From Octopus vulgaris (lineage: Eukaryota): 64,000 nucleotides of DNA. Positions 8,730 to 60,031 of the stretch are shown piece after piece; the first letter of the stretch is position 1, and each line of letters starts with the position of its first letter. Both the position numbers and the translations under genes were made by a program. The notes beneath the pieces are model-generated. The model saw only the letters and a list, made by a program, of their open reading frames with translations, was not told the origin of the DNA and made no database searches. Location of the stretch: positions 143,158,001 through 143,222,000 of the forward strand of contig OX597817.1 in NCBI GenBank assembly GCA_951406725.2. The letters are read 5' to 3'.

Positions 8730-9754
<1,025 letters not shown>

Positions 9755-9923
9755 ATTGTGTTGTCGCCATATTAATATGGCAGTCTTACAGATATAAGAC
9801 TAAAAGCTGTCGCTGATTAGCTCCATGAGGCCATCGCCTTAAGATAGCTATTTGACACACAAACTGTGTCCATTATAACCTTCGAACAAGGGAGGTCAGC
9901 CGCTTCACACTGCCAGTCAGACA

Positions 9924-9966
9924 GCTACAGACGCGTTTCAGGGTATTTGCCCTTTGTCAATGTAGC
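9924..9966 (-). ncRNA. Minimal type-I hammerhead ribozyme motif (U3:A8 variant), inverted copy
   Basis: Reverse complement of 10300-10342. Confidence 0.8.
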
Positions 9967-10299
9967 GTAGTCAGACCCAGCAGGATGTCGCCACTGATCG
10001 TCTCTGTTCGAAGGTTTTATTTACCTAGTTTCGGTGGAATACATCCACTTGTTTTCAATAATAGAAATATTAAAATTACTAAGTCTCTCTAAAAGTGATT
10101 GTCTTATATCTATAAGACTGCCATATTAATATGGCGATAACAATTAATTTCCAGTAACGCTGCCGTAATCTCTTTTAGAGAGACTTAGTAATTTTAATAT
10201 TTCTATTATTGGAAACAAGTGGATGTATTCCACCGAAACTAGGTAAATAAAACCTTCGAACAGAGACAATCAGTGGCGACACCTGCTGGGTCTGACTAC

Positions 10300-10342
10300 G
10301 CTACATTGACAAAGGGCAAATACCCTGAAACGCGTCTGTAGC
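10300..10342 (+). ncRNA. Minimal type-I hammerhead ribozyme motif (U3:A8 variant)
   Basis: GCUACA-UUGACAA-AGGG-caaaua-CCCU-GAAA-CGCG-UC/UGUAGC: stem I, core, stem II, GAAA, palindromic stem III and GUC cleavage triplet. Confidence 0.82.
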
Positions 10343-10561
10343 TGTCTGACTGGCAGTGTGAAGCGGCTGACCTCCCTTGTTCGAAGGTTATAATGGACAC
10401 AGTTTGTGTGTCAAATAGTTATCTTAAGGCGATGGCCTCATGGAGCTAATCAGCGACAGCTTTAGTCTTATATCTATAAGACTGCCATATTAATATGGCG
10501 ATAACAATTAATTTCCAGTAACGCTGCCGTAATCTCTTTTAGAGAGACTTAGTAATTTTAA

Positions 10562-10610
<49 letters not shown>

Positions 10611-10699
10611 ATATATATATATGTATATACACGGGGGGCTTCTTTCAGATTCCGTCTACCTCATCCAATTAAGTCGAACAAATTGACTCCAGGACTCAT

Positions 10700-12668
10700 T
10701 CTTTTATGAATGATGAACAAAATAATGATATTAATGAGGGAAGCAATCGACGTCCGCCGATCGTTGTTTCCCGAAAACATTGTCCTTTTTTCTCTTTTAT
10801 AAAACCAATTGAGGCTATAAACCTCTTCTTATAGTTCATCGAGACACAAGGTCCTTTCAAATGAGGCACTAAGCCTCTTACTTTTTTACAACTCGAGGCT
10901 TTAGAGCCGCTTACTTCCATGCTCGACTAGGTACACTGCCTCATTCAAGCACCTGCACGGTACCAAGTTGGGACACTTTAGTATAAATTTAATTATATCC
11001 TCGGAGAAGAAGTTCATTACCCTGCACAAGTCGGTTTCCCCTATTACCTCCGCAGCCACCTGCGGAGGCCAATCAGGGTCCTCAGTGCAGGACAGAACCC
11101 CTTCCCTCCGGCCTTTTCTTTTCACCTTCTTTATAAAGTTTTCTAAAGCCCCTCCCTTGTGAAAGAGGATTACAAATTCTTCTTTTATCACATAAGAAGG
11201 GGCCACAGTTTCTTCCGTCGATGGCACAATACCCACCGACAGGGTTTCGAGACATGCCGGCAGTGTGTTAGTAACCGCCGGCAATGCCCAATTTTTCCGT
11301 TTTGTCCGGAAGATTTTCCTTCCCCCCACAGCCTCGGTGGGCAACCATTGGCACCCACCTTCTCCCTCTTTCGGCCCTTTTTCGTCGAGAAGACATCCAC
11401 CTCCTCGACCATCTCCCTCTCTCCCTCCGAACGAGGAAGGGGGAGGGGGCTCTTCCTCAACTAACTGCTCCAGGACCCTACTCTGATCCTGGGGACAGTT
11501 CTTTTTTATATGGCGTGGTTCCAGGCACAGGTGACACTTGGGGAGGCGTCCCTCAAGTATCACCGGATACCTGTTCCCGGCCATAGTCAGAAAATATGGG
11601 AAGACCAGATTCTTAGCTGATTGGGTCTACAGGGTCAAAACAGTTTTTGATCCAACCCAATCAGCTGCCGGCAACATTTTGACATGAGGTAGCTTGAGTC
11701 CGCTGCCACCCATTCTCCAGCGGATTGTGTTCTCTATCCGCTCGGGCTCCATCCCGGGTGGCAACCCGCAGACCTAAGCTCTCGTCAACTTTTTCCCAAA
11801 ATAAGTGAGAAGAAACAGAATCTCTTTGCCTTCCAAGGGCTGACTCGCAAACTTGCGAGCCACCTCACGGGTGTCAAATAGCAGCCATATCGTTGCATAC
11901 TTGACACCCCTAGAAATAAACTTTATAGTTGGCAGATGCTCTGCCAACACTTTCTCTATTTCGACTTTGGAAAAGATGCTGATGGTGTCGAGTAACTTTG
12001 AATATGCCCTCAACACCACCGTCCTTTCTTCTAAGTCTTTTAACCACTGCTTGGGTAGGACAATCTCCCACTCCAACATACTGTTCGTTTTTTCTGCCAT
12101 ATTTTGGGAGAAGAAAAGTTAACACAAAAATGTTCAAATAAAACACAAAAAGGGAAAGAAGGAAGAAGAAAAGAAAAGAGTTCAAAACACAGCGACTTCA
12201 ATCTTCCAGCCAACTGGTATAGCAACAGGAACAAAGCTTCACAAATTTCACCAACAAATTGATACAAAAACTGGTAAAAAATTTCACAATTTTGGAGGTG
12301 GGACACACCCCCAAAACACTGCTAACAATCTTCCGGCCACCGGCACTCCAGGTCAACCAAATAGCAGAAACACAGCAACAGGAACAAAAAAACAACGTTC
12401 ACAATTTTGGGAGGAGAGACACGCCCCCAAAACAACACACTTCTCACCGCTAAGTGAAATACTTATGCCCAACAGCAGGCAGACAAATGCCCGGAATCCA
12501 GTGACAATTTCTTGCTTGAAAAGAAAAAATAAACACTACACAACAGACCACCACTGAATTCCCAAAAAACAAAAGTCTTACCTTGCAGTTGAGCTTTACT
12601 AGTTCAATAATTCACGACGCTGCACACCAGCGCCGTGACTCCACTCAATGTAAAGAAAACACTGACAG
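10700..12668 (-). pseudogene. Decayed Tx1-like LINE 5' portion (5' UTR + ORF1 only)
   Basis: ORF 11774-12100 (FISRGVKYATIWLLFDTREVARKF) aligns to ORF1 of the intact LINE (YINRGKKYGTVEVRFTSEEVAKKL). ORF 10901-11584 has the knuckle ILEGRLPKCHLCLEPRHIKKNC. No ORF2 follows. Confidence 0.75.
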
Positions 12669-12697
12669 ACGCATGCAAGCTTCTTACCACACAGCTA

Positions 12698-12752
<55 letters not shown>

Positions 12753-12889
12753 TAGCATTAAAGACCCGTCGTTGCCGGGTCATGGTGCTAGTGCATGTAT
12801 ATATCTATATATATATACATCTACACATAAAATACAAAATACAAAGTTATATCTTGATATCGCTAGTGATAACAATACTCAAAATATAT

Positions 12890-13171
12890 AACAGACTGGA
12901 ATTGTAGGCCCGTCTCTTGCAATTTCGATCAATTGTATCTTGTCCTCCTTCCTGTATAGAAGTGTGGCTACAATCCAGCCTACCTCAACTTCTGGGGGGG
13001 GGGGGCATTTTTAATTTTTTTCTGGGATGTCCTAGGTCACAGATATAAAGGTAAAAATAAAATAAAGTACTCCCTTGCACGCTCCGTTGACTTGAACCTT
13101 GCTTCTATTGTGGCGAATTTACCGCCTCTGAGTCGCACCAAGACACTTTTCGGAGGTGCTTTCCTCCATGT
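12890..13171 (-). pseudogene. Old Tx1-like ORF1 fragment, downstream part (continues at 23692-23760)
   Basis: Translates RGGKFATIEARFKSTERAREY..FLPLYL*PRTSQKKIKNAPP/EVEVGWIVATLLYRKEDKIQL, collinear with ORF1 RGKKYGTVEVRFTSEEVAKKL..LLPLYKGKRTSKITMNNIPPEADAEVLVAAVMVGLEEKINI. Confidence 0.75.
13160..13171. repeat. Target-site duplication TTTCCTCCATGT (also at 18425-18436 and 23692-23703)
   Basis: Identical 12-mer at both outer ends and between the two LINE copies. Confidence 0.9.
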
Positions 13172-13417
13172 TGTTTTATTATTACCCACAAGGGGCGAAC
13201 ACAGATGGGACAATACATTCTGATGATGGGGTCAGACAAACGAATGGGTTTTTACAATAAATCGAGTTTAAAAATTTTCATGAATAACAATAAATGGACA
13301 AAAATCGAGTGATAGGACAGACCGGAAGACATTACGGGTGGAGTGGGTGCGGGTTTAGCTCGGACCCCACGAGCCCCGCCTCCCCACTGATACTTTTGGT
13401 TGCACTTGGTATTACAT

Positions 13418-16400
13418 TTATGTTGTAACTTTCATTCGCAACTTCCGTGCTACATCCTTCCATCGTTCTTCATACGCTCTCCTAGTCAGGCATATTCTCT
13501 CCAGCCCTATCTTCCTTTTCAGGTGAAAGATGAAATAATTCATCAAACCAGGGCCGGAGATGAACTTGCCTGACTGTAAACCTTTCATTCTCGTCTTCCA
13601 TATCACCTCTTTCGCGATTGCTACTACAACGAGAAAACGAAACTTACCTTCATTCACGAGGAAATCCGGTGGGTCAATTTTTGTAATCGACTCAGTCGAC
13701 AGCTGTACTCTTCGTGTACCTGACAACAGGTGTTCGGCATAAACCCACACCTCAGACACGTCCGGACAATGAACAATCGCGTGCGGGACGGTTTCCCTAT
13801 CCCGCCCGCATCTTGGACATATCGGACTGTCTTGGCCACCGTGCCTTGCGAGTTTATCCCGAACAGGTAGAGCTCCTCTGTAGCATTGCCATGCCAGAGA
13901 CTTCTGGAAGTTGTCCAGTGTCCTTGGCTCGAACGTACGTCGGAACAGACTGGCCAGCTGATTATCGTCGAGACCTAGGGTTTCCCCCAAGGTATCTTCA
14001 CATTCCGCCTCTACCAACCCTCTATAGAAGAAAGTGGTGGAACCCCCACCGCAGGCGTTGCCCGAGCGACGGAATAGCAGGAGAGCCTTGCGACACTCCG
14101 TGTACCAAGTACCAAGTTTCGATCTACGATTCAGCCAGGTTTCCCATCCACCGAAACTAGTGAACTTGGGAAACATCAGTTTTGCTAGCGAAGACCACAC
14201 CCGTTCACCATCCAGGTAGAGCCACAGATGTCTTAACCTCAGCGCATGTCTGCGCATCATCAGCCAAGGCATCCCTAGCCCACCCTTTAACGGTTGTTGA
14301 CAGCAAGTAGAGCGTTTCACAAGTGGTTTCCCGCCCTTCCACAAGAAGTAGAAGAGCTGTCTTTCCAACTTGATCAACCACGAATCAGGGCAAGGAACGA
14401 CGGAAAGGCGGTAGGTGATAACCGATGCGATAAACACATTGGCCACCTCCGCCCTCCCTTTCAGGGATAGCCACCGCCAAGACCAGGTCTTGGCTACTGC
14501 AGCCACCTTGCTCGTTACCTCGCCCCAATTCTTCTCTATTTGGAGGTCTGGACCGAACCAGACCCCTAGCAGTTTAATCGGACCCTCCGTCCAACGTCCC
14601 ACGACGCTGTCAGGAGGCATCGACTTGCCTCTCCAGGTGCCGAGTTGCAAGCCGACTGACTTTTCGCGATTAACTTTTGCTCCTGTCACCGTCTCGTACA
14701 CCTCTATGGCCTTGCCTACTTTACATAGGTGGTCCATTTCGGTTACGATGATGGTGATGTCATCCGCGTACGCTGACACTGATTTTCCATTACCTGGCTG
14801 TCTCGGGATGCCGCTCAGTTTTCGCAGTAATGGCTCAAGAGCCATCACGTACAAAAGCGGGGAGAGCGGACACCCTTGACGAACCGAGCGTTTGATTTTG
14901 AACGGCTTCGACAAGAAGCCGTTCACCCGAACTACCGAGTCGATGTTATCATAAATTTCGATAATCCACCTGAGGAATCCAAGGCTCAGCCCGAACTGTG
15001 CCAGGGCAGATACCAGGTAACGATGGTCGACCCTATCAAAAGCTTTAGATTGGTCTAAATGGACCAGTGCCCCACCCTTGCCAGAATCACTATTAAACCC
15101 CTCTATAGTGTACCGCATTAGATGGAGATTATCCTGAATGGATCTGCCCGGAACGGCACATGTCTGTGCCCCTCCGATCAGACCATCCGCGACACGCGCC
15201 AATCTTTTCGATAACACTTTGGCCAAAATCTTCAACTCTGTGTTTAGCAGAGTGATGGGCCTGAAATTATCAATGCACTCCCCCTTGCTCGGGTCCTTTC
15301 TGACGAGAGTCACTACTCCCCGGCGCACAGATCTGGGTATAAGCCCGTTCTGCTGCCAGTTCGCGTAGACCTCCGCCAGTAGGTGCCCGAACAAGTCTGG
15401 CATACTCTTATATAACTCATAGGGTAGACCATCCAAACCCGGCGCCTTGCCCGCGCCGCAGTCCGCCATTGCCTCAACCACCTCCTCAGGCGTGATTGGC
15501 CCTTCACAGCCCTCCGCATCTCGCCCCGATAAGCGCGGCAGACCGTCGAGTAGGTCCGTAAAGGCCCTCCTCCTATCCAGTCCGCCGCACTCACCGAAAA
15601 GCTGAGCGAAGTGCTCCTGAAAGGCCTCACACATCTCCTCGGGTTCGTTTATCAACTCACCTTGTTGGTTCGTCAAAGATCGAATCGTGGCATCGTTACC
15701 ATGCTGAGCTTCCACCACTCGGGCCCATCTCACGGCGTTGATTCCTTCACATCCCATATGACGGATTCTAGCCCTGACAATGCAGCCCATGTGTTTGGCC
15801 TCGAGGTGCTGGTTTAACACCAGTCTCTTGGCCGCCACCTGAGCCGCAGAGCCAGTTTTCATGGCTTCCTCTAATTCCTTAACTAGAGTAGTTTCCCTTC
15901 TAGCCTCTCTAGCCACTACTCCTATGCTATATCTAATAGACTCAAACTTGATGGCTCGTTTGAGGGCGTACCACCATTTGTTATTAATGATGGTACCAGA
16001 TAGTGCCCTCTGAATTATATTCCTAATCCGGTCTTTGTACTCCTTAATCGCCAAAAGGGACGTATTAAGTTTCCAGTAACCGGATCCTCTATTTTTAACC
16101 TTATCTATGTCAAGCTTACAAGTGATCATTTCATGATCACTGTAGCTGATCGGGTAAAACTGTGGACACTTAGCTATTTTACTGTCTACTTTTCTAATTA
16201 GTATTCTATCTAGATACGACCTGGAAGATCCGTCGCTGTTTGACCATGTCCACAATGGAGCGTTCGGAAATTCCAGCCTATAAGGATCTGCTAGCTCAAA
16301 GCGGCTTAGCAGTTCCATGAAGCCACTGTTGCCTTTTCTATCTGGACACGAGCCAACATAATCTACATCCGCTTTGCAAATTGTGTTAAAGTCTCCTAGC

Positions 16401-16813
16401 ACCACTAATGAATGCGAAGTACCAAGAAAGTTTTCTAGTTCACGAAAATAATCACTTTGCCCTGTATGGTTGGGTGCGTAAATTGCAACCAGTCTGATAA
16501 CTTTACCATTACTGAACGTCAAATCCATGACGACCAGCCTACCTTCTGGATCTGCAAAAATTAACTTTTTCTCAGAAACCCGGTTTCTTTTTAATAGGAC
16601 CAACACCCCACTCCCGCCTGTAGGACTGCCAGGAGAGAAAAAACTCTCGTAGCCGTCAAACAGCGGGAGTAGACCTCTTGGCCCCTCTAGCCGGGTTTCT
16701 GTAGCAACAATAACATCTAAATTACGCGACCTGATATCATGCAGGAAGCGACCTTGCTTCCAGCCTGCTCCCAGGCCGCGCACATTTAAACAACCAACAT
16801 AAATGTAATCCAT
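13418..16813 (-). CDS. LINE ORF2: APE endonuclease + reverse transcriptase + C-terminal CCHC (1131 aa, intact)
   Basis: LNVRGL, TETR, GDFN, LDRIL, SDH (APE); APGLDG, FRPITLLN, DQSKAFDRV, RQGCPLSP, YADD (RT); CPRC..ETVPHAIVHC; YWKLNTSLL typical of Tx1. Confidence 0.95.
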   Translation of the reverse strand: MDYIYVGCLNVRGLGAGWKQGRFLHDIRSRNLDVIVATETRLEGPRGLLPLFDGYESFFSPGSPTGGSGVLVLLKRNRVSEKKLIFADPEGRLVVMDLTFSNGKVIRLVAIYAPNHTGQSDYFRELENFLGTSHSLVVLGDFNTICKADVDYVGSCPDRKGNSGFMELLSRFELADPYRLEFPNAPLWTWSNSDGSSRSYLDRILIRKVDSKIAKCPQFYPISYSDHEMITCKLDIDKVKNRGSGYWKLNTSLLAIKEYKDRIRNIIQRALSGTIINNKWWYALKRAIKFESIRYSIGVVAREARRETTLVKELEEAMKTGSAAQVAAKRLVLNQHLEAKHMGCIVRARIRHMGCEGINAVRWARVVEAQHGNDATIRSLTNQQGELINEPEEMCEAFQEHFAQLFGECGGLDRRRAFTDLLDGLPRLSGRDAEGCEGPITPEEVVEAMADCGAGKAPGLDGLPYELYKSMPDLFGHLLAEVYANWQQNGLIPRSVRRGVVTLVRKDPSKGECIDNFRPITLLNTELKILAKVLSKRLARVADGLIGGAQTCAVPGRSIQDNLHLMRYTIEGFNSDSGKGGALVHLDQSKAFDRVDHRYLVSALAQFGLSLGFLRWIIEIYDNIDSVVRVNGFLSKPFKIKRSVRQGCPLSPLLYVMALEPLLRKLSGIPRQPGNGKSVSAYADDITIIVTEMDHLCKVGKAIEVYETVTGAKVNREKSVGLQLGTWRGKSMPPDSVVGRWTEGPIKLLGVWFGPDLQIEKNWGEVTSKVAAVAKTWSWRWLSLKGRAEVANVFIASVITYRLSVVPCPDSWLIKLERQLFYFLWKGGKPLVKRSTCCQQPLKGGLGMPWLMMRRHALRLRHLWLYLDGERVWSSLAKLMFPKFTSFGGWETWLNRRSKLGTWYTECRKALLLFRRSGNACGGGSTTFFYRGLVEAECEDTLGETLGLDDNQLASLFRRTFEPRTLDNFQKSLAWQCYRGALPVRDKLARHGGQDSPICPRCGRDRETVPHAIVHCPDVSEVWVYAEHLLSGTRRVQLSTESITKIDPPDFLVNEGKFRFLVVVAIAKEVIWKTRMKGLQSGKFISGPGLMNYFIFHLKRKIGLERICLTRRAYEERWKDVARKLRMKVTT

Positions 16814-16822
16814 TACTTACCT

Positions 16823-18206
16823 TTATATCAGTGGTTCGGTTTTTTCTTCTTCTTCCTTCTCTTTTTCTGGGCCTCGTGGGGGAGTCTGACGTAGGCCCTC
16901 GAATATATGTGGAGATGTTACATCCAACCTAAGTGGGCCTACGTCATGGAAGAATTCTGACTTTATCCGCCCGTAATCCTTCCGGTCTATTTTGTAAATT
17001 GCAAAGTCATTTTTTTCTCTACTCTCTTCACATTGGCCATGGCTGCCAACACGTTTCCGAGTCTGCTATTTGATGCTTTTACGGCCATATATGAGTTCAT
17101 TGACTCTTTTTTCTTTTTTAAAATTACTCTGGGAGGGGTGGTTTCCGTTTTTCTTTTTTTTTTCCGATAATTTTTGCCCACCCCTCCTCATTTATCTTTT
17201 CTTCGCTCTTTTTTTTCTCCGCCGCTGGTTCTGCTGTTACCATCACCTCCACACCTTCAGTCTTCCCATCTGGGCCGTCTGACGCTGCTTCTGGTGACAC
17301 ATTGTCTTCTTTTCCTTTTGGCTTAGGTGCTTCCTGCGGTTTGGGTTGGGGCTGGCATTCCGCCCTTACATGCCCCTTCTTACCGCAGCCGAAGCACCTC
17401 GGCTTTCTGCCCTCTACGAAGACTGTGACTCTTTCATCTTCGCTTATCCTAAGAGTCTCTGGGATCTCTTCCAGGGTTTGTACTTCTGCTTGTATGGCTA
17501 TTATTATCTTTTGCCCTTTCCAGAATTCTTCTTCTTCTACGGTGGCCTGGAGGATGTTTATTTTTTCCTCCAGGCCTACCATAACTGCTGCCACTAGGAC
17601 TTCGGCATCCGCTTCTGGCGGGATGTTGTTCATAGTGATTTTGGAAGTTCTCTTGCCTTTATACAGGGGTAGGAGAACAATATCCTCCGCTTTTATGGGT
17701 TCCATGGATAGCTTCTTCGCTACCTCCTCTGACGTGAATCTCACCTCCACTGTGCCGTATTTCTTCCCTCGATTGATATACGTAATTTTATCCATTATTG
17801 GCTTTAAGCAGTTTTCAATCTTTTTCTCCTCTATTTTTTTTTTTTGGATTGCTCTGTTTGTTATACTGAATGTCTTATAGATTATTCTCCTATTCGAAAT
17901 ATCCTCCTGTATTTTGGCGTTTGAAGCCACGGTTACTTCCGTGCCCTCTTTTGACACACAGTCTGCATGTTTTCCCAGGTTGTCCACGTTAATTTTTTTA
18001 ATTTTCTTCCCAGCCACTTCAGCGAATTTTTTTGCTGGAGTTGATGCTGGTACTGGTTTTACCATTTTCTTGGGCGACGCCGCCTCTTTTTTCTTCGGCG
18101 ACAGCGCCTCTTTTTTTCTTGGCGACAACGCCTCTTTTTTACTTGGCGACAACGCCGGGTATTCATCCTCGCTCGTCACGGGCGAATAAGTGATGGGGGA
18201 CTCCAT
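16823..18206 (-). CDS. LINE ORF1 (gag-like, RRM-like region + single zinc knuckle), frameshifted in A-homopolymers near the C-terminus
   Basis: ORF 17124-18215 contains CFGCGKKGHVRAEC. The C-terminus continues in other frames (16987-17181); compare copy B. Confidence 0.85.
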
Positions 18207-18682
18207 TTTGGACAAATGGCTTTAACAAGCCTTTGGTAATCTAAATTGATTGTAGTTTTCCCCCACTGAGGGGGGAACACCAACGCGAAGTCTTCGCGCG
18301 AAGGTTGACTTCGTCCGTTAGACAACAATGGACAAAAAAAGGTAGACCAACAGTATATAATAACAGAGATAAGTAGTATGAGAGCAAAAATATATATCAA
18401 CTTACTAATAACGCAATAAATTGATTTCCTCCATGTTGTTTTATTATTACCCACAAGGGGCGAACACAGATGGGACAATACATTCTGATGATGGGGTCAG
18501 ACAAACGAATGGGTTTTTACAATAAATCGGGTTTAAAAATTTTCATGAATAACAATAAATGGACAAAAATCGAGTGATAGGACAGACCGGAAGACATTAC
18601 GGGTGGAGTGGGTGCGGGTTTAGCTCGGACCCCACGAGCCCCGCCTCCCCACTGATACTTTTGGTTGCACTTGGTATTACAT

Positions 18683-21600
18683 TTATGTTGTAACTTTCAT
18701 TCGCAACTTCCGTGCTACATCCTTCCATCGTTCTTCATACGCTCTCCTAGTCAGGCATATTCTCTCCAGCCCTATCTTCCTTTTCAGGTGAAAGATGAAA
18801 TAATTCATCAAACCAGGGCCGGAGATGAACTTGCCTGACTGTAAACCTTTCATTCTCGTCTTCCATATCACCTCTTTCGCGATTGCTACTACAACGAGAA
18901 AACGAAACTTACCTTCATTCACGAGGAAATCCGGTGGGTCAATTTTTGTAATCGACTCAGTCGACAGCTGTACTCTTCGTGTACCTGACAACAGGTGTTC
19001 GGCATAAACCCACACCTCAGACACGTCCGGACAATGAACAATCGCGTGCGGGACGGTTTCCCTATCCCGCCCGCATCTTGGACATATCGGACTGTCTTGG
19101 CCACCGTGCCTTGCGAGTTTATCCCGAACAGGTAGAGCTCCTCTGTAGCATTGCCATGCCAGAGACTTCTGGAAGTTGTCCAGTGTCCTTGGCTCGAACG
19201 TACGTCGGAACAGACTGGCCAGCTGATTATCGTCGAGACCTAGGGTTTCCCCCAAGGTATCTTCACATTCCGCCTCTACCAACCCTCTATAGAAGAAAGT
19301 GGTGGAACCCCCACCGCAGGCGTTGCCCGAGCGACGGAATAGCAGGAGAGCCTTGCGACACTCCGTGTACCAAGTACCAAGTTTCGATCTACGATTCAGC
19401 CAGGTTTCCCATCCACCGAAACTAGTGAACTTGGGAAACATCAGTTTTGCTAGCGAAGACCACACCCGTTCACCATCCAGGTAGAGCCACAGATGTCTTA
19501 ACCTCAGCGCATGTCTGCGCATCATCAGCCAAGGCATCCCTAGCCCACCCTTTAACGGTTGTTGACAGCAAGTAGAGCGTTTCACAAGTGGTTTCCCGCC
19601 CTTCCACAAGAAGTAGAAGAGCTGTCTTTCCAACTTGATCAACCACGAATCAGGGCAAGGAACGACGGAAAGGCGGTAGGTGATAACCGATGCGATAAAC
19701 ACATTGGCCACCTCCGCCCTCCCTTTCAGGGATAGCCACCGCCAAGACCAGGTCTTGGCTACTGCAGCCACCTTGCTCGTTACCTCGCCCCAATTCTTCT
19801 CTATTTGGAGGTCTGGACCGAACCAGACCCCTAGCAGTTTAATCGGACCCTCCGTCCAACGTCCCACGACGCTGTCAGGAGGCATCGACTTGCCTCTCCA
19901 GGTGCCGAGTTGCAAGCCGACTGACTTTTCGCGATTAACTTTTGCTCCTGTCACCGTCTCGTACACCTCTATGGCCTTGCCTACTTTACATAGGTGGTCC
20001 ATTTCGGTTACGATGATGGTGATGTCATCCGCGTACGCTGACACTGATTTTCCATTACCTGGCTGTCTCGGGATGCCGCTCAGTTTTCGCAGTAATGGCT
20101 CAAGAGCCATCACGTACAAAAGCGGGGAGAGCGGACACCCTTGACGAACCGAGCGTTTGATTTTGAACGGCTTCGACAAGAAGCCGTTCACCCGAACTAC
20201 CGAGTCGATGTTATCATAAATTTCGATAATCCACCTGAGGAATCCAAGGCTCAGCCCGAACTGTGCCAGGGCAGATACCAGGTAACGATGGTCGACCCTA
20301 TCAAAAGCTTTAGATTGGTCTAAATGGACCAGTGCCCCACCCTTGCCAGAATCACTATTAAACCCCTCTATAGTGTACCGCATTAGATGGAGATTATCCT
20401 GAATGGATCTGCCCGGAACGGCACATGTCTGTGCCCCTCCGATCAGACCATCCGCGACACGCGCCAATCTTTTCGATAACACTTTGGCCAAAATCTTCAA
20501 CTCTGTGTTTAGCAGAGTGATGGGCCTGAAATTATCAATGCACTCCCCCTTGCTCGGGTCCTTTCTGACGAGAGTCACTACTCCCCGGCGCACAGATCTG
20601 GGTATAAGCCCGTTCTGCTGCCAGTTCGCGTAGACCTCCGCCAGTAGGTGCCCGAACAAGTCTGGCATACTCTTATATAACTCATAGGGTAGACCATCCA
20701 AACCCGGCGCCTTGCCCGCGCCGCAGTCCGCCATTGCCTCAACCACCTCCTCAGGCGTGATTGGCCCTTCACAGCCCTCCGCATCTCGCCCCGATAAGCG
20801 CGGCAGACCGTCGAGTAGGTCCGTAAAGGCCCTCCTCCTATCCAGTCCGCCGCACTCACCGAAAAGCTGAGCGAAGTGCTCCTGAAAGGCCTCACACATC
20901 TCCTCGGGTTCGTTTATCAACTCACCTTGTTGGTTCGTCAAAGATCGAATCGTGGCATCGTTACCATGCTGAGCTTCCACCACTCGGGCCCATCTCACGG
21001 CGTTGATTCCTTCACATCCCATATGACGGATTCTAGCCCTGACAATGCAGCCCATGTGTTTGGCCTCGAGGTGCTGGTTTAACACCAGTCTCTTGGCCGC
21101 CACCTGAGCCGCAGAGCCAGTTTTCATGGCTTCCTCTAATTCCTTAACTAGAGTAGTTTCCCTTCTAGCCTCTCTAGCCACTACTCCTATGCTATATCTA
21201 ATAGACTCAAACTTGATGGCTCGTTTGAGGGCGTACCACCATTTGTTATTAATGATGGTACCAGATAGTGCCCTCTGAATTATATTCCTAATCCGGTCTT
21301 TGTACTCCTTAATCGCCAAAAGGGACGTATTAAGTTTCCAGTAACCGGATCCTCTATTTTTAACCTTATCTATGTCAAGCTTACAAGTGACCATTTTATG
21401 ATCACTGTAGCTGATCGGGTAAAACTGTGGACACTTAGCTATTTTACTGTCTACTTTTCTAATTAGTATTCTATCTAGATACGACCTGGAAGATCCGTCG
21501 CTGTTTGACCATGTCCACAATGGAGCGTTCGGAAATTCCAGCCTATAAGGATCTGCTAGCTCAAAGCGGCTTAGCAGTTCCATGAAGCCACTGTTGCCTT

Positions 21601-22078
21601 TTCTATCTGGACACGAGCCAACATAATCTACATCCGCTTTGCAAATTGTGTTAAAGTCTCCTAGCACCACTAATGAATGCGAAGTACCAAGAAAGTTTTC
21701 TAGTTCACGAAAATAATCACTTTGCCCTGTATGGTTGGGTGCGTAAATTGCAACCAGTCTGATAACTTTACCATTACTGAACGTCAAATCCATGACGACC
21801 AGCCTACCTTCTGGATCTGCAAAAATTAACTTTTTCTCAGAAACCCGGTTTCTTTTTAATAGGACCAACACCCCACTCCCGCCTGTAGGACTGCCAGGAG
21901 AGAAAAAACTCTCGTAGCCGTCAAACAGCGGGAGTAGACCTCTTGGCCCCTCTAGCCGGGTTTCTGTAGCAACAATAACATCTAAATTACGCGACCTGAT
22001 ATCATGCAGGAAGCGACCTTGCTTCCAGCCTGCTCCCAGGCCGCGCACATTTAAACAACCAACATAAATGCAATCCAT
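18683..22078 (-). CDS. LINE ORF2: APE + RT + CCHC (1131 aa, intact)
   Basis: Same motifs as copy A. Differs only at MDY/MDC and HEMIT/HKMVT by eye. Confidence 0.95.
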   Translation of the reverse strand: MDCIYVGCLNVRGLGAGWKQGRFLHDIRSRNLDVIVATETRLEGPRGLLPLFDGYESFFSPGSPTGGSGVLVLLKRNRVSEKKLIFADPEGRLVVMDLTFSNGKVIRLVAIYAPNHTGQSDYFRELENFLGTSHSLVVLGDFNTICKADVDYVGSCPDRKGNSGFMELLSRFELADPYRLEFPNAPLWTWSNSDGSSRSYLDRILIRKVDSKIAKCPQFYPISYSDHKMVTCKLDIDKVKNRGSGYWKLNTSLLAIKEYKDRIRNIIQRALSGTIINNKWWYALKRAIKFESIRYSIGVVAREARRETTLVKELEEAMKTGSAAQVAAKRLVLNQHLEAKHMGCIVRARIRHMGCEGINAVRWARVVEAQHGNDATIRSLTNQQGELINEPEEMCEAFQEHFAQLFGECGGLDRRRAFTDLLDGLPRLSGRDAEGCEGPITPEEVVEAMADCGAGKAPGLDGLPYELYKSMPDLFGHLLAEVYANWQQNGLIPRSVRRGVVTLVRKDPSKGECIDNFRPITLLNTELKILAKVLSKRLARVADGLIGGAQTCAVPGRSIQDNLHLMRYTIEGFNSDSGKGGALVHLDQSKAFDRVDHRYLVSALAQFGLSLGFLRWIIEIYDNIDSVVRVNGFLSKPFKIKRSVRQGCPLSPLLYVMALEPLLRKLSGIPRQPGNGKSVSAYADDITIIVTEMDHLCKVGKAIEVYETVTGAKVNREKSVGLQLGTWRGKSMPPDSVVGRWTEGPIKLLGVWFGPDLQIEKNWGEVTSKVAAVAKTWSWRWLSLKGRAEVANVFIASVITYRLSVVPCPDSWLIKLERQLFYFLWKGGKPLVKRSTCCQQPLKGGLGMPWLMMRRHALRLRHLWLYLDGERVWSSLAKLMFPKFTSFGGWETWLNRRSKLGTWYTECRKALLLFRRSGNACGGGSTTFFYRGLVEAECEDTLGETLGLDDNQLASLFRRTFEPRTLDNFQKSLAWQCYRGALPVRDKLARHGGQDSPICPRCGRDRETVPHAIVHCPDVSEVWVYAEHLLSGTRRVQLSTESITKIDPPDFLVNEGKFRFLVVVAIAKEVIWKTRMKGLQSGKFISGPGLMNYFIFHLKRKIGLERICLTRRAYEERWKDVARKLRMKVTT

Positions 22079-22088
22079 TACTTACCTT

Positions 22089-23473
22089 TTATATCAGTGG
22101 TTCGGTTTTTTCTTCTTCTTCCTTCTCTTTTTCTGGGCCTCGTGGGGGAGTCTGACGTAGGCCCTCGAATATATGTGGAGATGTTACATCCAACCTAAGT
22201 GGGCCTACGTCATGGAAGAAATCTGACTTTATCCGCCCGTAATCCTTCCGGTCTATTTTGTAAATTGCAAAGTCATTTTTTTTCTCTACTCTCTTCACAT
22301 TGGCCATGGCTGCCAACACGTTTCCGAGTCTGCTATTAGATGCTTTTACGGCCATATATGAGTTTATTGACTCTTTTTTCTTTTTTAAAATTACTCTGGG
22401 AGGGGTGGTTTCCGTTTTTCTTTTTTTTTTTCCGATAATTTTTGCCCACCCCTCCTCATTTATCTTTTCCTCGCTCTTTTTTTTTTCCGCCGCTGGTTCT
22501 GCTGTTACCATCACCTCCACACCTTCAGTCTTCCCTTCTGGGCCGTCTGACGCTGCTTCTGATGACACATTGTCTTCTTTTCCTTTTGGCTTAGGTGCTT
22601 CCTGCGGTTTGGGTTGGGGCTGGCATTCCGCCCTTACATGCCCCTTCTTACCGCAGCCGAAGCACCTCGGCTTTCTGCCCTCTACGAAGACTGTGACTCT
22701 TTCATCTTCGCTTATCCTAAGAGTCTCTGGGATCTCTTCCAGGGTTTGCACTTCTGCTTGTATGGCTATTATTATCTTTTGCCCTTTCCAGAATTCTTCT
22801 TCTTCTACGGTGGCCTGGAGGATGTTTATTTTTTCCTCCAGGCCTACCATAACTGCTGCCACTAGGACTTCGGCATCCGCTTCTGGCGGGATGTTGTTCA
22901 TAGTGATTTTGGAAGTTCTCTTGCCTTTATACAGGGGTAGGAGAACAATATCCTCTGCTTTTATGGGTTCCATGGATAGCTTCTTTGCTACCTCCTCTGA
23001 CGTGAATCTCACCTCCACTGTGCCGTATTTCTTCCCTCGATTGATATACGTAATTTTGTCCATTATTGGCTTTAAGCAGTTTTCAATCTTTTTCTCTTCT
23101 ATTTTTTTTTTGGATTGCTCTGTTTGTTATACTGAATGTCTTATAGATTATTCTCCTATTCGAAATATCCTCCTGTATTTTGGCGTTTGAAGCCACGGTT
23201 ACTTCCGTGCCCTCTTTTGACACACAGTCTGCATGTTTTCCCAGGTTGTCCACGTTAATTTTTTTAATTTTCTTCCCAGCCACTTCAGCGAATTTTTTTG
23301 CTGGAGTTGATGCTGGTACTGGTTTTACCATTTTCTTGGGCGACGCCGCCTCTTTTTTCTTCGGCGACAGCGCCTCTTTTTTTCTTGGCGACAACGCCTC
23401 TTTTTTACTTGGCGACAACGCCGGGTATTCATCCTCGCTCGTCACGGGCGAATAAGTGATGGGGGACTCCATT
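22089..23473 (-). CDS. LINE ORF1, one frameshift in an A-homopolymer near 23105
   Basis: ORFs 23083-23709 (MESPITYSP...) and 22089-23063 join to give the ORF1 seen in copy A. Confidence 0.85.
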
Positions 23474-23679
23474 TTGGAACAAATGGCTTTAACAAGCCTT
23501 TGGTAATCTAAATTGATTGTAGTTTTCCCCCACTGAGGGGGGAACACCAACGCGAAGTCTTCGCGCGAAGGTTGACTTCGTCCGTTAGACAACAATGGAC
23601 AAAAAAAGGTAGACCAACAGTATATAATAACAGAGATAAGTAGTATGAGAGCAAAAATATATATCAACTTACTAATAAC

Positions 23680-23691
23680 GCAATAAATTGA
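23680..23691 (-). promoter_or_regulatory. Inr-like motif (TCAATT) at the LINE 5' end, putative internal Pol II promoter start
   Basis: Both copies start with TCAATTTATTGCG immediately after the TSD, resembling the TCAKTY initiator. Confidence 0.35.
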
Positions 23692-24258
23692 TTTCCTCCA
23701 TGTGTTCAAATCTTTTTTCTCTACATTGTATACTTTATAGACAATAATCTTTTCTTTAATTTAATTGTTTATTATCCATCTGGACTATTCCATTTCTGCA
23801 CGCTTATTTTATTTTTAATTTATTCCCATTTATGTGAAACCACTTATTCAAGTTCAAGTCATTGATGCAATTTTATACCAATTGCTATTTTTACTTTTGT
23901 TATGTTACGACTATATTATACTTTAGTTTGATTTTAATTATTACTTACTACATATAATTCAATTGTTATTTTTATTTTTATTGTTAAAGTGTAGTATCTG
24001 ACATAAAATAGAGAAATGTTTTTGTTTCACTTTTAACACGTAATACTGAAATAGTGGAGAAGATATGATATTGCTATGGGCTCGCCCTAGGCAAGAAGTT
24101 GAACATTTCTTTTTGCCCATTAAACTACATGGACCCTAAGTAAGGCATGTGTAAAATTTGAATGAAATTGGTTGTGTAGTTCTCAAGTTTTAGGGAAACA
24201 CACAGACAGACAGACAGACACACATTCTCAGTTTTATACATATAAAGATATATTTATA

Positions 24259-25299: not shown

Positions 25300-25990
25300 G
25301 TAGCGGTAGTCCTCTCATTAAAGCTGGGTATCTTCAAGAAACAGGTCTTAGAGAGATCCTTCTTGCCTTTATTTGGCTTGTGTTCTTGGATGGAGTTAAC
25401 AACGGACGTCGGGTATCCGTTGGTCTAAGTACCTTTAGGAACTGAACAATATGCGTCCCGGCATATGTTACTCTCTTGAATATACGGGCGATCTCGCTAT
25501 GTACATAGCTCCCTGATGTGGAGGACCGACTTGTAATGGTCGAAGAGATCCCGGCAGGATGATTTTCGGTAGAACACCGTGTCAATTTTTCCCTTTGTCT
25601 GTGATGTTTAACTAAAAGTCAAGCAAGAAGAGAGAACCATCGCTGCTTGGATGTTCAGTGGTGAAGCTAATATGTTGGTCTATATTATTGGATGTCTCTA
25701 GTATTGTGAAGGCGTCCTCATGGAAAGGTGTGTGCATGAGAATGTCGTCCATATACGTAGTGATAAAAGTGCACGAGTGACAAGAACTGAGTGTCCTACG
25801 CTCAAGGCAGTCTAAGTAATAAGCAAGTAGGCCTAAACATTTATTATACGTGTTGCCAAGGAAATCGAAGTGTGTGTTGGCAACTATGACTGACACTGGC
25901 TCCTCTGAATACATCACTGCGACGACGACCAGCATCATAACATACGCCACCAACACCATCTTAAACGGTCGGAGAGTTGCTGCTGCTGCT
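25300..25990 (-). pseudogene. Decayed Penelope-like RT fragment
   Basis: YMDDILM...NNIDQHISFTTEHPSSDGSLFLLDF is the PLE RT motif 5-7 pattern. Confidence 0.7.
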
Positions 25991-26237
25991 AAACCAAGCG
26001 CCGAGCAGCTTAAAATGGAATAACGAAATCTATGTAAATACTCATTTCGTGGACTGCTTCCTTCTGAAGATAGGCTTTCCCGCCTGAAATATAAAGTTTT
26101 TTTTTTAAAAAACTTTCTGCATTGTTAGAAGCTTTTTTTTCCCCTTTTCTCTTTCTACTTGTGTAATACAATGCTTCAAGCGAACTACAACACTTTTATA
26201 TGAACATATATTATACACAAACATATATTATACACAA

Positions 26238-26469
26238 AGGCGGCGAGCTGGCAGAAACGTTAGCACGCCGGGCGAAATACGTAGCCGTATTTCGTCTGTC
26301 GTTACGTTCCGAGTTCAAATTCCGCCGAGGTTCACTTTGCCTTTCATCCTTTCGGGGTCGATAAATTAAGTACCAGTTACGCACTGGGATCGATGTAATC
26401 GACTTAATCCGTTTGTCTGTCCTTGTTTGTCCTCTCTATGTTTAGACCCTTGTGGGCAATAAAGAAATA
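26238..26469 (+). mobile_element. SINE family 1, full monomer with Tx1-like tail
   Basis: GGCGGCGAGCTGGCAGAAACG ... CCCTTGTGGGCAATAAAGAAATA. Confidence 0.88.
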
Positions 26470-26745
26470 TATATTATACACAAACACACATATACATACA
26501 CACACACACACATAAACTATGTATATATATTTATGTAAATAATATATATGCATACATACATACATATATATGTATATATTTGTATAAATGTATATCTATA
26601 TATATGTATATAGGTATATACATATCTATATACATATATATGTATATAGGTATATACATATCTATATACATATATATGTATGTACATATATGTATGTATA
26701 TATGCATATATATATATATATATGTATGTGTATATATGTATATAT

Positions 26746-27687
26746 CGCATCATCAACTCCTTCACCTGCACCTCCAGCAATATTATCTATTGCGTCTCTT
26801 GCTCTCTCTGCCATTCCTTGTACATCGGACAAACGGGACGCCGCTTGGCTGACCGGTTCGCGGAACACCTTCGTGACATCCACCTTGCGAACGACACACC
26901 GGTCTCACGCCATTTCCGCTCCACCGGTCACTCCTTGCAACACCTGTCTGTGTTCGGTTTGTCCTTACACAGAGGCCATCCGGATTCCCGTTTGCGCCGT
27001 GAACAGGAATTAATCTTCTCTCTTCGCTCTTATACGCCATTTGGTCTCAACTCTCCCCCCTCCTCATCTAACCCCTCTCTCCCCCTCCTCACCTACCTCC
27101 CCCCCCCGACCCCTACTTCTCTTCAGTCCTTCATCCTTTCACCCCTGCTCCCCTTCCCTTCTTCCCTCTTTCTCCCTCTTTCTCCCTCCCTCCTTCCCTC
27201 TTCCCCTTCCCTCTGCTCCCTCACTCCCCTCCTCTCCTCCTCCCTCTTCTCCCCCTTCTCTTCCCCCCATCCCCCTCTTCTCCTCTCTCCACACTACACC
27301 ACACGACTTTACACATCACATCATATATACATACACACGTCCAGACCTCTCATACGCACTAATACTCTCCCATGCACACCCCCCCCCTTATGTTGGAGTA
27401 GGTCATTCAACCCTATTATCTCCCCTAATTTCGCTCTCGCGTCTCATGTTTGATCTTTGACTTCTGGCCGAAATCAGATCGCCATGTTGATTCGTTAGTT
27501 ACTGCACGCATATTTTTTTCTCTCCTTCTTTCTGTGTTTTTTTCTCTGTGTATCTTTCTGTTGAAGAGCGTAGGCTCGAAACGTTAAAGACTTGTTTTAT
27601 TTATATTTCCTGAGCGCCATACTAATACAATTGTTTGTTTGTTTTCCACCTGCCTTCGTCTTTTGTCTATTTTCATAAAGCTTCCCG

Positions 27688-27689
<2 letters not shown>
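26746..27689 (+). mobile_element. 5'-truncated Penelope-like element (GIY-YIG end, C-rich 3' region, pLTR with hammerhead-like motif)
   Basis: [30 protein letters not shown]. Near-identical to 59064-60445. Inserted in (AT)n. Confidence 0.9.
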
Positions 27690-27746
<57 letters not shown>

Positions 27747-41570: not shown

Positions 41571-41600
41571 TAAAGAGATATTTAGGGAGAAAGATAGTTA

Positions 41601-42070
41601 GGAGTAAATTTTGTTTGCCAGCATAACATGGCAGTCCTGGTTTAGGACGAATGTTGCTGTAATTTAGTCCTAGGAGACATCGTCTCCCACTTGTTATACG
41701 ACACGATCTATGTCTTTACATTTTTCGAACAAGGGAATTTAGTACCACCACCCAGCTCAAAACAATATCTTTGTATCGCGATTTCCGGGTTATTTCCCTT
41801 CATCAGCATAGAATAACTGATCGGGAAATAAACCGGAAATCGCGAAACACAGTGCTTTGAGCTGAGTGGGGGTGCTAGATTCCCTTGTTCGAAAAATGTA
41901 AAGACATAGATCGTGTCGTATAGCCAGCTGGAGACGATGTCTACTGGAGCTAAATTACAGCAACATTAGTCCTAAACCAGGACTGCCATGTTATGTTGGC
42001 AAACAACCTTTACTCCAAAGTACTGTTGCTGAATATCTCTCGTTGTGAGATTTAAAAATAGTAATTTTCT
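41601..42070. mobile_element. Retrozyme-like family member: inverted pair with canonical hammerhead core (41769-41811, minus)
   Basis: Arms 41601-41815 and 41817-42017 are reverse complements. CUGAUGA-AGGG-aaauaa-CCCG-GAAA-UCGCGA-UA. Shares CCCTTGTTCGAA, GGAGCTAA and GACTGCCAT with the 364-nt unit. Confidence 0.75.
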
Positions 42071-42350
42071 GAGAGATATAGTTAGATAGACAGACGGATA
42101 GAGAGATAGTTAGGGAGAGAGTTAGTTAGACAGACATTCAGGTAGGTAGATAGAGAGGGAGAATGAGAGAGACAGACAGACATATAATGTTTCATTGCTC
42201 AATGCCATATCATATTAAACAAGTCATATGTGTTGGAATACGAGATTCTTCGCCATTGTCTAAGGAGTTCTTTCTCGCTGCCATATTCATATTCCTAAAA
42301 GATTTGTCAACAAAACGGCCATTTTATTTATATAATACGGCGTTTCCGGA

Positions 42351-42629
42351 AAATAATAGTTATCGCCATACTAATATGGCATTCTTATAAAAATAAGAAT
42401 AAAGCTGTCCGCTACGCTGCATTGAAAAGGGGCAATACCCCGAAACGCGTCTGTAGCTGCCGGTCAAGTAGTGTGGAGCGACTGACCTCCCTTGTTCGAA
42501 GGTTATATGGATACAGTTTGTGTATCAAATAGCTAACTTAAGGCGATGGCCTCATGGAGCTAATAAGCGGACAGCTTTATTCTTATTTTTATAAGAATGC
42601 CATATTAGTATGGCGATAACTATTATTTT
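42351..42629 (+). mobile_element. Retrozyme-like family member with U3:A8 hammerhead (42416-42457) and ~63-bp inverted 5' arm
   Basis: GCUGCA-UUGAAAA-GGGG-caaua-CCCC-GAAA-CGCG-UC/UGUAGC. Body is clearly homologous to 10295-10510. Confidence 0.85.
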
Positions 42630-47870: not shown

Positions 47871-48283
47871 TATCGGACACTGATTCTTTTATTTGTCCTC
47901 AACGCCCTGAATCCCTAAAATTATGTCGAAATTTCATAATAATATTTTTTTAACCGTAACATGTCTCCTCGTCTTTGTACGCTTCTGCCAGATGCGACCG
48001 TGAATGTCCGACCGTTATTTTTCGCCACCGGACAACACTTCCTCGCCTTAAGTGATATCTGTTTATAACAGACAGGATTCACCAGTTCACCGATATAAAG
48101 GGACTTCGAGGCACCTTAATATTTCGACCTTGAGTGTCTCCGATGAATCTTACAAAAGCACGGAGCTTTTCTTTATAAAAATCAGCAAGCAAATTATTCG
48201 CTAATACGTGCGGACATCTGCCAAACCGATAATCACTCGTAGTATGCACGTGACACGGCGAAAATGCAAACAATAACCTATCC

Positions 48284-48862
48284 TTAATGTGACAGTCCCA
48301 TGAAAAGGAAGAATGCTACTGTTATTTAGCCCAAGGAAACACTGTTTCCTGTTGGACTTGACACATTTCCAGGATATGTGTCAAGTCCAACAGGAAACAG
48401 TGTTTCCTTGGGCTAAATAACAGTAGCATTCTTCCCTTTCGTGGGACTGTCACATTAAGTTGACAACATGTTATCACTTTATTGTGCTGCTACTGTTTAA
48501 GTCTCTCTGAGAGATTTACAAATATATTATTTCTATTTTCAAAAAGTCAGTGAATGTATTTCACTTGAAATATATATGTCTTCAAAGGCTGTTAGGCATC
48601 GACAACTAGCAAGCCATGCTACTCCAGCCTGATGATGAGCAAAGACTCTGAAACTAGTCTCTGGGTGCTGGCTTTGCTGGGTGGAGGTGCTTGTCTCCAC
48701 TTCGAAAATGTGTCAAGTCCAACAGGAAACGGAGTTCCTAGGGCTAAATAACAGTAGCACTCTTCCCTTTGATGGGACTGCTACATAAGTTGACAACATG
48801 CTATCACTTTATCGTGCTGCTACTGCATAAATCTCTCTGAGAGGTTTAGAAGTGTATTATTT
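48284..48862 (+). mobile_element. Retrozyme-like family member: inverted arm + 1.45 copies of a 332-nt unit, hammerhead at 48623-48665
   Basis: TGTGTCAAGTCC occurs at 48377 and 48709; 48284-48366 is inverted. CCAGC-CUGAUGA-UGAG-caaaga-CUCU-GAAA-CUAG-UC/UCUGG. Confidence 0.8.
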
Positions 48863-50036
48863 TGAATAACCTCTCCGTTCTTAATACGTTCAAGCAGATT
48901 CGACTGTGAATATCTAATCTCTGCTGTTTTCGCTACCAGAGAACATCCCTTGATACACAATGGCGGGAGAGCTGAGAGGATGCGATAACTGAAAGGAAGA
49001 GAAAACAAGCTGCATCAACACTCAGTAGGAACTAATTTTCAGTTGAGTAGACCAGAACAGCGTGAAAGGAAGTGCCTTGCTCAAGGAGTCAACGCGTCGT
49101 CCGACCCAAGACAATAATTTATTTTATTTTGTTATCGCTGTAATTATAGTAAAGTTCTCCTCACAGTAGGTTATTGGTATTAGGTTACAGTAACCCACTC
49201 AGACTCCCTTTTCTTGATAACTGCAGGTGCTATTAAAACAAAGGACATCAAATAAGAAAGCCAGGTGATATGAAAAGTAGTTTAGTTATTTATTAAAGTG
49301 ATCAATGTTTAAAATTTAGAGATGGGGAAAATTGTTTCGTGGTAGCCATAACTTCAGTACATTCTATAATAATTTCAATGATTTTTGTTCTTTATTGTTG
49401 TTGTTGTTTTTTGTTGTTTTTTTTTTAGAAATATATTTTGGTGTTTTCAGTAACATTTACAGTTGCTTAATGTTATATTTTTAGTTTATTTTGTGAATGA
49501 TTTTTTTTGAAAGCTTATAAGCAACTTGGGGCAAGAATGTCTCTAAAAAATTCCTTTTCTCTACTCTCATCTTGACTTTGGTTTTAGAACTACTTGTCCA
49601 CCTAGTTGCTATCGTTCTTATACCAAATAACGGTAATTTACGCTTAACACAACATTCATTTTATTTGTCATGAATTTTCACATTATTGTAATTTTGATAG
49701 CAGTATAATAATGACAGCGCAAATACGTGACGTGCTAGAGCTAAAATGATTGCAGATTCGGAATAAGCGCTCACAAATTACCTATAAACACCATTTCGCC
49801 TAATAGTAGCAAAACTTTTGTTGCTTAGGGTAATGTATAAAATCTGTTATAAATATATAAAAAAGCAGCGTGTACATTTACAAGAGAGGACATTGAATAA
49901 ATATATAAACCGAAATCAGAGAACTAATCAATAAATACGACTTATAACCATTTAAGTATCGATGAAATTGATAAATATCAACAGTGAAGTGAAAGAGAAA
50001 TTTGAAACGAGATCTACAGACGACTAGGAATTGATA

Positions 50037-57546: not shown

Positions 57547-57976
57547 TGCATTTATTTATAATCTATATGTACATGTTTATGCACATTGCGTCGTAGAAAA
57601 TATAAAATGCATATCGATGTGTGTGTGTGTGTGTATGTGTGTGTGTACGTGCGCGTGTGTGATTGTGTGTTTGTTACTGTGCGTGTATGTGCGTTTGCAT
57701 TTGTATATTAATAATGTATAGAGTATTACCGGACAAGAGGAAACGCCACGGATTAAGAGTCTGATAATGAGTAATCCATATCTTTCTCAAGGTCGTCTTC
57801 CACTCCAGCCTGAGTGGCGTGATTCAATAATCGTAAATAATATACAAGTATCGGTGGGGGTATATATATATATATATATATATACATACATACATATACA
57901 TATATATCGATATCAACATATATATATATATGTATATATGTACATATATAAACATGGATACATATATATACACATA

Positions 57977-58033
<57 letters not shown>

Positions 58034-59994: not shown

Positions 59995-60031
<37 letters not shown>

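Follow-up and report, generated by a model that had tools for sequence, protein, structure and literature searches.

Non-coding hammerhead retrozymes of Octopus vulgaris with Penelope-like insertion anatomy, and an apparently Tx1/L1-like LINE that targets them

Non-LTR retrozymes of metazoans are the described system closest to the repeats reported here, and they include a mussel family of 350–390 bp with circles (PMC7229834). Their link to Penelope-like elements (PLEs) was proposed in 2020 and again in 2026 (PMC7229834; 10.64898/2026.07.22.740005), the later report arguing from co-occurrence and repeat similarity that retrozymes are non-autonomous PLE derivatives, and copying from a unit-length circle has been put forward as well (PMC4209133; PMC7229834). 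For animal retrozymes, the mobilising enzyme and the circle as template are at issue, the case made in the available parts of the published reports being one of co-occurrence and terminal-repeat similarity; in Xenopus, eight of nine predicted retrozyme dimers gave no cleavage in vitro (10.64898/2026.07.22.740005). Penelope elements themselves carry inverted terminal repeats, an optional tail and target site duplications (TSDs) of 8–10 bp (PMC3846280, PMC8557442), and a purified Poseidon protein was shown to nick both strands of the target and extend them, with reverse transcription from two internal sites bounding the tail (PMC11167929). Both the canonical metazoan type-I hammerhead and a U3-A8 core variant have been reported (PMC4209133), and LINEs of the Tx1 clade are known to target other transposons (PMC4494074).

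The DNA analysed, called the window throughout, is a stretch of 64,000 nucleotides of the 2.8-Gb genome of Octopus vulgaris (GCA_951406725.2, contig OX597817.1, positions 143,158,001 to 143,222,000, forward strand). A preliminary description had proposed a hammerhead-bearing family with four loci in this window, and a search of the 64 kb with a family profile and a covariance model returned exactly these four, here named A to D (Table 1). Whether the family had been described was left open there: the class, non-LTR retrozymes, is already described, and the family itself was not found in the literature searched. The layout given for locus A, 1.29 direct units of 364 nt after an inverted arm, was retained with small boundary changes, positions 10101–10206 recurring at 10465–10570 with 99% identity within a direct arm of 470 nt, and the locus sits between (TA)n tracts. 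Loci B (41598–42070) and C (42339–42629) were recovered as the inverted-arm members they had been taken for. Locus D has a layout like that of A, as proposed; its supposed 332-nt unit had to be revised, the 332-nt spacing being that of a deleted copy in a lineage with a unit of ~340 nt. The four loci represent three homologous lineages with units of 364, 351 and ~340 nt, in which C is a sublineage of A (88% identical) and A, B and D share 68–79% local identity with each other. The window loci are part of a larger superfamily of dispersed non-coding repeats that carry type-I hammerheads.

A ~470-base poly(A) run at 9255–9723, within the (TA)n left of locus A, is possibly an assembly artefact. 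The window further contains a fragment at 44409–45005, which from its motifs we take to be of a mariner-like transposase, and a dispersed repeat of ~170–295 nt, probably a SINE family, at 365–719, 26237–26475, 50311–50893 and 62302–62596.

Table 1. Retrozyme features of the window; short and long ends are the two fixed 3' ends described in the text, and cleavage sites are predicted.
Feature	Position	Strand	Remark
Locus A inverted arm, 342 nt, short 3' end	9759..10100	-	unit positions 195 to ~170-176
Hammerhead motif in locus A inverted arm; predicted cleavage after 9930	9924..9966	-	
Locus A direct arm, 1.29 units of 364 nt, to long 3' end	10101..10570	+	
LINE / ORF1-only insertion site, empty in locus A	10270..10288	+	unit positions 298-316, filled in other copies
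Type-I hammerhead motif, locus A direct arm; predicted cleavage after 10336	10300..10342	+	
~58-nt tail, short to long fixed 3' end, locus A	10513..10570	+	
(TA)n target tract, right flank of locus A	10571..10630	.	left tract ~9724-9753
Locus B (351-nt lineage) inverted arm, short end	41598..41817	-	hammerhead core 41806-41800, stem I damaged
Locus B direct arm, long end; starts past core	41818..42070	+	
Locus C short inverted arm	42339..42411	-	
Locus C arm to short end	42412..42629	+	hammerhead 42416-42457, predicted cleavage after 42451
Locus D TSD left copy, 12 bp	48272..48283	+	matches 48865-48876 at 11/12
Locus D inverted arm	48283..48368	-	
Locus D direct arm, ~1.5 units of 332 nt	48370..48864	+	hammerhead 48623-48665, predicted cleavage after 48659
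Locus D TSD right copy	48865..48876	+	read directly from sequence

The hammerhead of locus A has a stem I of 6 bp, a stem II of 4 bp closed by loop 2 (CAAAUA), the core UUGACAA and, as had been noted, a palindromic stem III (motif scan). These dimensions are those of the canonical metazoan type I and not of the minimal PLE form, so that the earlier label "minimal" was dropped; the motifs of A and C correspond to the U3-A8 core variant. A strict motif scan recovered the intact motif in both arms of A and in C, and the claim that all loci carry a hammerhead needs qualifying for the window copies of B and D: in B, stem I is mismatched and the direct arm is coreless, and in D a C-U mismatch in stem I adjoins the core. 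Elsewhere in the genome, the B and D lineages carry full hammerhead stems. Although lineage H, introduced below, is one of the youngest, its hammerhead core reads CCGAUGA and its stem III is longer. Rfam gave no hammerhead among the 150 of 193 window matches listed, nor in the unit alone, and the window matches among those listed were set aside as microsatellite-driven microRNA noise.

As a linear molecule, the A unit folds strongly (z = −6.8) into a long rod that is tipped by the hammerhead, and circular sense folds reached z = −7.4 (A), −4.3 (B) and −3.4 (D), the antisense being about as strong (GC of the three units folded, 0.38–0.41). The hairpins named in the preliminary description line up in the alignment of the loci, and 21 of the 37 named pairs show changes on both sides among 27 copies from eight lineages, including 6/6 pairs of stem I and 4/4 of stem II. 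The covariation score was 0.277, compared with 0.157 in shuffles (0/500) and at most 0.101 when the structure was slid, where the shuffles ignore the relatedness of copies and the reference structure is taken from lineage A. The tail hairpin fared poorly, pairing in 58% of cells only, and RNAalifold chose helices partly different from the named set.

For lineage A, 120 loci were fetched genome-wide and 14 duplicates were removed, which left 106 loci with 160 arms, a sample skewed toward long ends because the sequences searched with, query or pattern, were located in the tail or extended into it. Counted from the predicted cleavage site, 104/160 arms end at ~+234 and 48/160 at +170 to +181, with 8 elsewhere; 152/160 arms thus stop at one of two fixed 3' ends ~58 nt apart. 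The 5' ends are scattered, and the circularly permuted ends that the preliminary description had proposed to look for were not borne out, the 3' ends being fixed and only the 5' ends variable. A (TA)n tract follows 90/104 long and 43/48 short ends. In 43/106 loci a long arm stands head-to-head with an inverted short arm, the shorter-ended arm usually being the inverted one; most copies are partial, and 7/106 loci have arms of at least 600 nt. A fold-back origin of the inverted arm was rejected, since inverted arms often outlength their direct partner (572 nt versus 254 nt in locus L110), which argues that each arm is an independent cDNA. Where arms join, microhomology averages 2.3 nt versus 0.7 nt in the null, and 23 of 29 scored joins are gapless.

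The same two ends, 50–60 nt apart, were found in lineages B and D and in the young fourth lineage H (unit 363 nt, top matches 98–99% identical). The target differs: (TA)n stands at 22/28 long ends in H, 1/30 in B and 4/25 in D, and this split of homologous lineages, A and H with and B and D without (TA)n, suggests more than one helper over time. Among loci with non-(TA)n flanks, TSDs of 10 nt or more (mostly 11–15 nt, up to one mismatch tolerated; (TA)n-flanked loci left out) were counted at 13/20 B loci and 10/13 D loci, with 0.5% and 1.9% in cross-locus controls (L133 and L141 dropped from D as duplicates). These TSDs flank the whole inverted structure; in A and H they are mostly masked by (TA)n. 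Further lineages E, F and G were recovered from the flanks of other loci. First-look candidates, which are not copy counts, amounted to 3340 (A), 2927 (B), 2492 (D), 2772 (G) and 1861 (H). The units (364, 351, 340 and 363 nt) are non-coding and lie within the retrozyme range of ~150–450 nt.

The earlier reading of a non-autonomous retrozyme copied by a PLE gains support from the two fixed 3' ends, the inverted arm, TSDs of 11–15 bp and the homogeneous longer-than-unit inserts. Judged from this insertion anatomy, mobilisation by PLEs is very likely, and the insertions fit the Poseidon reaction in vitro in each respect checked. The anatomy is also exactly that of PLE terminal repeats (PMC3846280, PMC8557442), and the units might be read as 5'-truncated terminal repeats of unsampled coding PLEs with no independent life, in a genome that holds many PLE families, only the best candidates of which were scored. 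Such an origin is very improbable in view of the arms that exceed one unit, which re-enter the same 364-nt unit, up to three times, and not an ORF, and of the 106 A loci, which share no upstream non-unit sequence except the LINE insertion described below. None (0/106) continues upstream into shared coding sequence, in line with the independent amplification without an ORF that had been proposed, and no ORF with reverse transcriptase (RT) and GIY-YIG domains between repeats was attached in the 106 A loci, nor in G and H loci. A terminal-repeat origin is further disfavoured, as far as 100 PLE-selected loci go, in which the model had no match at the termini of Neptune-, Hydra- or Poseidon-like elements; four matching loci among the 100 look like independent insertions in flanks. 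No helper PLE was found among these elements, which counts against the PLE reading as well. These clade names are presumptive, having been given from motifs, aided by the supplement of PMC8557442.

Hairpin 4 of lineage A resembles the Neptune repeat over 12 nt, which we put down to chance. On visual inspection, the octopus Naiad consensus sequences in the PMC8557442 supplement did not resemble the family, and neither of two family motifs occurs in that supplement. The Neptune-like PLE is very abundant, with intact ORFs of ~1200 aa elsewhere in the genome, a minimal hammerhead and a (TA)n target; 5'-truncated copies of this young PLE (23,435 first-look candidates) lie at 57722–60440 and 26650–27700 of the window, and its hammerhead has an unusual, invariant CUGUUGA core. 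A decayed RT fragment of a Poseidon-like PLE is found at 25612–26124.

With regard to the template, 48 of 84 pattern-selected long A arms run past the predicted cleavage site, and 5 arm ends lie within 8 nt of it compared with ~3 expected, a rough figure since arm lengths misfit a simple exponential (KS p = 0.003). As arms cross the predicted site with no marked pile-up there, a cleaved linear monomer was not the template. Template jumping at the site was discarded for want of scars: the junction columns are intact in ~100 crossings, and the changes seen near the junction comprise a single 2-nt deletion column pair and, in stem III, four subfamily insertions. At 24 diagnostic non-CpG variants, concordant and discordant comparisons numbered 25/6 for tandem copies, 137/14 for inverted arms and 5790/47606 between loci (L104, L034, L073 and L036, misaligned or composite, left out). 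Locus L401 consists of three full units and an inverted arm; 28 variants are common to all three units, and of their 8 unit-private variants, 4 were not seen in any of the 106 A loci. A circular RNA template is favoured over others, and is probable, on the strength of the scarless crossing of the predicted cleavage site and the variants shared by tandem copies in a locus, a combination that favours repeated copying of one unit-length molecule. Counter to a circle stand the discordant sites, 6 tandem and 14 inverted, and the concordance could have arisen via gene conversion or young sources instead. In four sequencing runs, guessed to be RNA, the unit was covered in fragments of several sublineages, from which neither expression nor circularity follows.

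Hammerhead cleavage was dispensable for one PLE in vitro, where unprocessed RNA was the main template and dead hammerheads were tolerated (PMC11167929), and the long inserts could therefore stem from uncleaved tandem transcripts. On this account, PLE-driven insertion would start from the read-through transcript of a tandem copy and the hammerhead would be unneeded for copying; possible sources exist in loci with two or three tandem hammerheads, and the absence of a 5'-end pile-up at the predicted cleavage site fits too. We nevertheless consider it unlikely, since variants new to a locus are found in each of its tandem units, and since, of 99 discordant tandem sites (L104 and L034 left out), 2 recur in two loci in the same order, compared with 1 in the opposite order. 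Direct arms moreover share no source flank upstream, no tandem run exceeded three in the first 100 of the 140 exact matches to the hammerhead, and the hammerhead stems covary between lineages.

Taking template and enzyme together, we lean towards non-coding hammerhead retrozymes that are likely copied in trans by a PLE RT-endonuclease, probably from a unit-length circular RNA. In the proposed course, a tandem copy would be transcribed and cleave at both hammerheads, and a host ligase would close the monomer into a circle. A PLE protein would then nick both target strands with a stagger of ~12 bp, and one cDNA would be primed from each nick, one at each of the two start sites; extension would carry each cDNA back along the circle up to a stall, after which the ends of both cDNAs would anneal to each other. 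The inserted units would later be taken as a specific target by a Tx1/L1-like LINE.

Evidence for such targeting came from two loci with a 2.1-kb spacing, which led to a 1.7-kb element with a single ORF of ~430–480 aa, 34% identical over 214 residues to ORF1 of the L1/Tx1-like LINE in the window and referred to here as the ORF1-only element. Its 3' motif has 84 exact genome matches. Among the 30 copies fetched, by our reading, 25 are on target and 5 off target: 19 abut a retrozyme directly, upstream of its hammerhead, and 6 are themselves tandem copies with the duplicated target after them; in 20 re-fetched copies, chosen as on-target, ~14 show part of the unit upstream, several with a duplication of 13–17 bp. 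Insertions of the element (L351–L400; L112) lie at the homologous position of several lineages, A, D, E and H among them, and frequently form tandems.

A full LINE of ~5.4 kb was found in locus L402 (G000:C11:33579500-33588000), inserted at unit positions 304–316 of an A/C retrozyme and flanked by a duplication of 13 bp; the other arm carries, at the same site, 74 nt of this LINE. It encodes an ORF1 of 515 aa with a zinc knuckle (PF00098) and an ORF2 of 1140 aa with endonuclease and RT (PF03372, PF00078, PF13966), and was provisionally placed as Tx1/L1-like by domain content and BLAST rather than by an RT tree. When 30 relatives were examined, all 19 best-matching ones (97–100%) were on target (16 of them directly, the other 3 at the head of tandems); overall, 20/30 ends were on target and 10 lower-scoring ones were off target. 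Target specificity was taken as more than 20% of copies flanked by one target, a share that both the LINE and the ORF1-only element exceed. Both insert ~20–35 nt upstream of the hammerhead core, the LINE mostly in the sublineage of window locus C, and the LINE relatives (L404–L424) include a tandem of at least five copies at C2:73046635-73068721. LINE clades mix host retrozyme lineages, which points to repeated targeting. A literature search on retrozyme with Tx1 returned no LINE that targets retrozymes.

The adjacency of LINE and retrozyme was not put down mainly to 3' transduction, given the upstream unit parts and the TSDs. These features also bear on whether a LINE with an APE-type endonuclease, for instance the adjoining Tx1/L1-like element, copies the retrozymes, the inversions then being produced by twin priming. 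A young intact LINE is indeed physically tied to the units, and its target duplications of 13–17 bp are of similar size; the LINE, however, interrupts the unit, with the upstream unit part and the duplication on its other side, and its 3' end is unlike the retrozyme ends. In twin priming, an upstream segment is inverted that does not overlap the rest, and the points of inversion vary; the inverted arm of the retrozymes, in contrast, shares sequence with the direct arm and has a fixed stop. A LINE helper is accordingly rated highly unlikely, and a PLE remains the preferred enzyme.

Several further LINE copies were observed. In locus L393 (2537–3669, oriented), both arms of an inverted insertion include the 3' end of the ORF1-only element, and a LINE-interrupted retrozyme seems to have been copied there as a composite. 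An older LINE relative in L431 abuts other sequence after its 3' end, which may resemble the start of a U1 snRNA gene, and other older copies precede TAC. The window itself holds, at 10630–23760, two tandem, near-identical L1/Tx1-like LINEs with an ORF1 fragment, each with an intact ORF2 of 1132 aa (13418–16816 and 18683–22081, minus strand) that is 56% identical to that of the retrozyme-targeting LINE; the pair ends at a SINE-like tail near 10632–10667.

New in this work are the insertion-level evidence for the link between retrozymes and PLEs, a map of the double-primed anatomy of the insertions, the finding that lineages differ in the targets they choose, and the targeting of retrozymes by a seemingly Tx1/L1-like LINE and its ORF1-only relative. 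A picture of nested parasites can be offered tentatively and with less than even confidence: a PLE would copy circular hammerhead RNAs via both strands of one staggered cut, a specialised LINE would enter just upstream of the hammerhead, and the ORF1-only element would ride on the LINE, which may use the ribozyme and promoter of its host to make its own RNA. If this picture is true, the many young insertions document directly, in the DNA of an animal, how reverse transcription proceeded round a circular RNA. The Penelope signature is borne by the insertions themselves, which place both start sites with a precision of a few bases; young copies of lineages A and H, 97–99% identical, offer substrates for an in vitro test, and the retrozyme-targeting LINE adds a new class of target for site-specific retrotransposons.

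Compared with metazoan non-LTR retrozymes, as far as the available text of PMC7229834 and 10.64898/2026.07.22.740005 describes them, the octopus family shares non-coding units (340–364 nt), a GC content of ~40%, a canonical type-I hammerhead with palindromic helix III, a strongly folded monomer, tandem copies and co-occurrence with PLEs. It differs in that its copies are mostly dispersed partials instead of long arrays; the fixed double 3' ends, inverted arms and TSDs mapped here are not described in the available parts of either report. Xenopus retrozymes had 21 PLE matches (10.64898/2026.07.22.740005), whereas no homologous PLE terminal repeat was found for the octopus family. With endonuclease-bearing PLEs (PMC3846280, PMC8557442, PMC11167929, PMC4209133), it has in common 5' truncation, partial tandems, an inverted 5' arm, an optional tail, TSDs (~8–14 bp in the PLEs), a preference for (TA)n in some lineages, a hammerhead upstream of the start sites and the U3-A8 variant; unlike the PLEs described in these sources, the retrozymes have no ORF, a tail of ~55 nt instead of 30–40 nt, and a canonical instead of a minimal hammerhead. 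Non-autonomous Chlamys elements such as MRC1 are likewise non-coding, PLE-mobilised and found in head-to-tail copies, but by the account available they have no canonical hammerhead and a 3' end like that of their helper (PMC8557442), whereas the octopus units have the hammerhead and no homology to a helper was found. The LINE, finally, resembles the target-specific members of the Tx1 clade (Tx1 into Tx1D, Tx1-Mar, Keno) in its APE-RT organisation, zinc-knuckle ORF1, use of one site in another repeat, tandem insertion and TSDs (PMC4494074), and differs from those known from the available text in that its target is a retrozyme, entered just upstream of the hammerhead, and in that a 1.7-kb ORF1-only relative shares nearly the same site.
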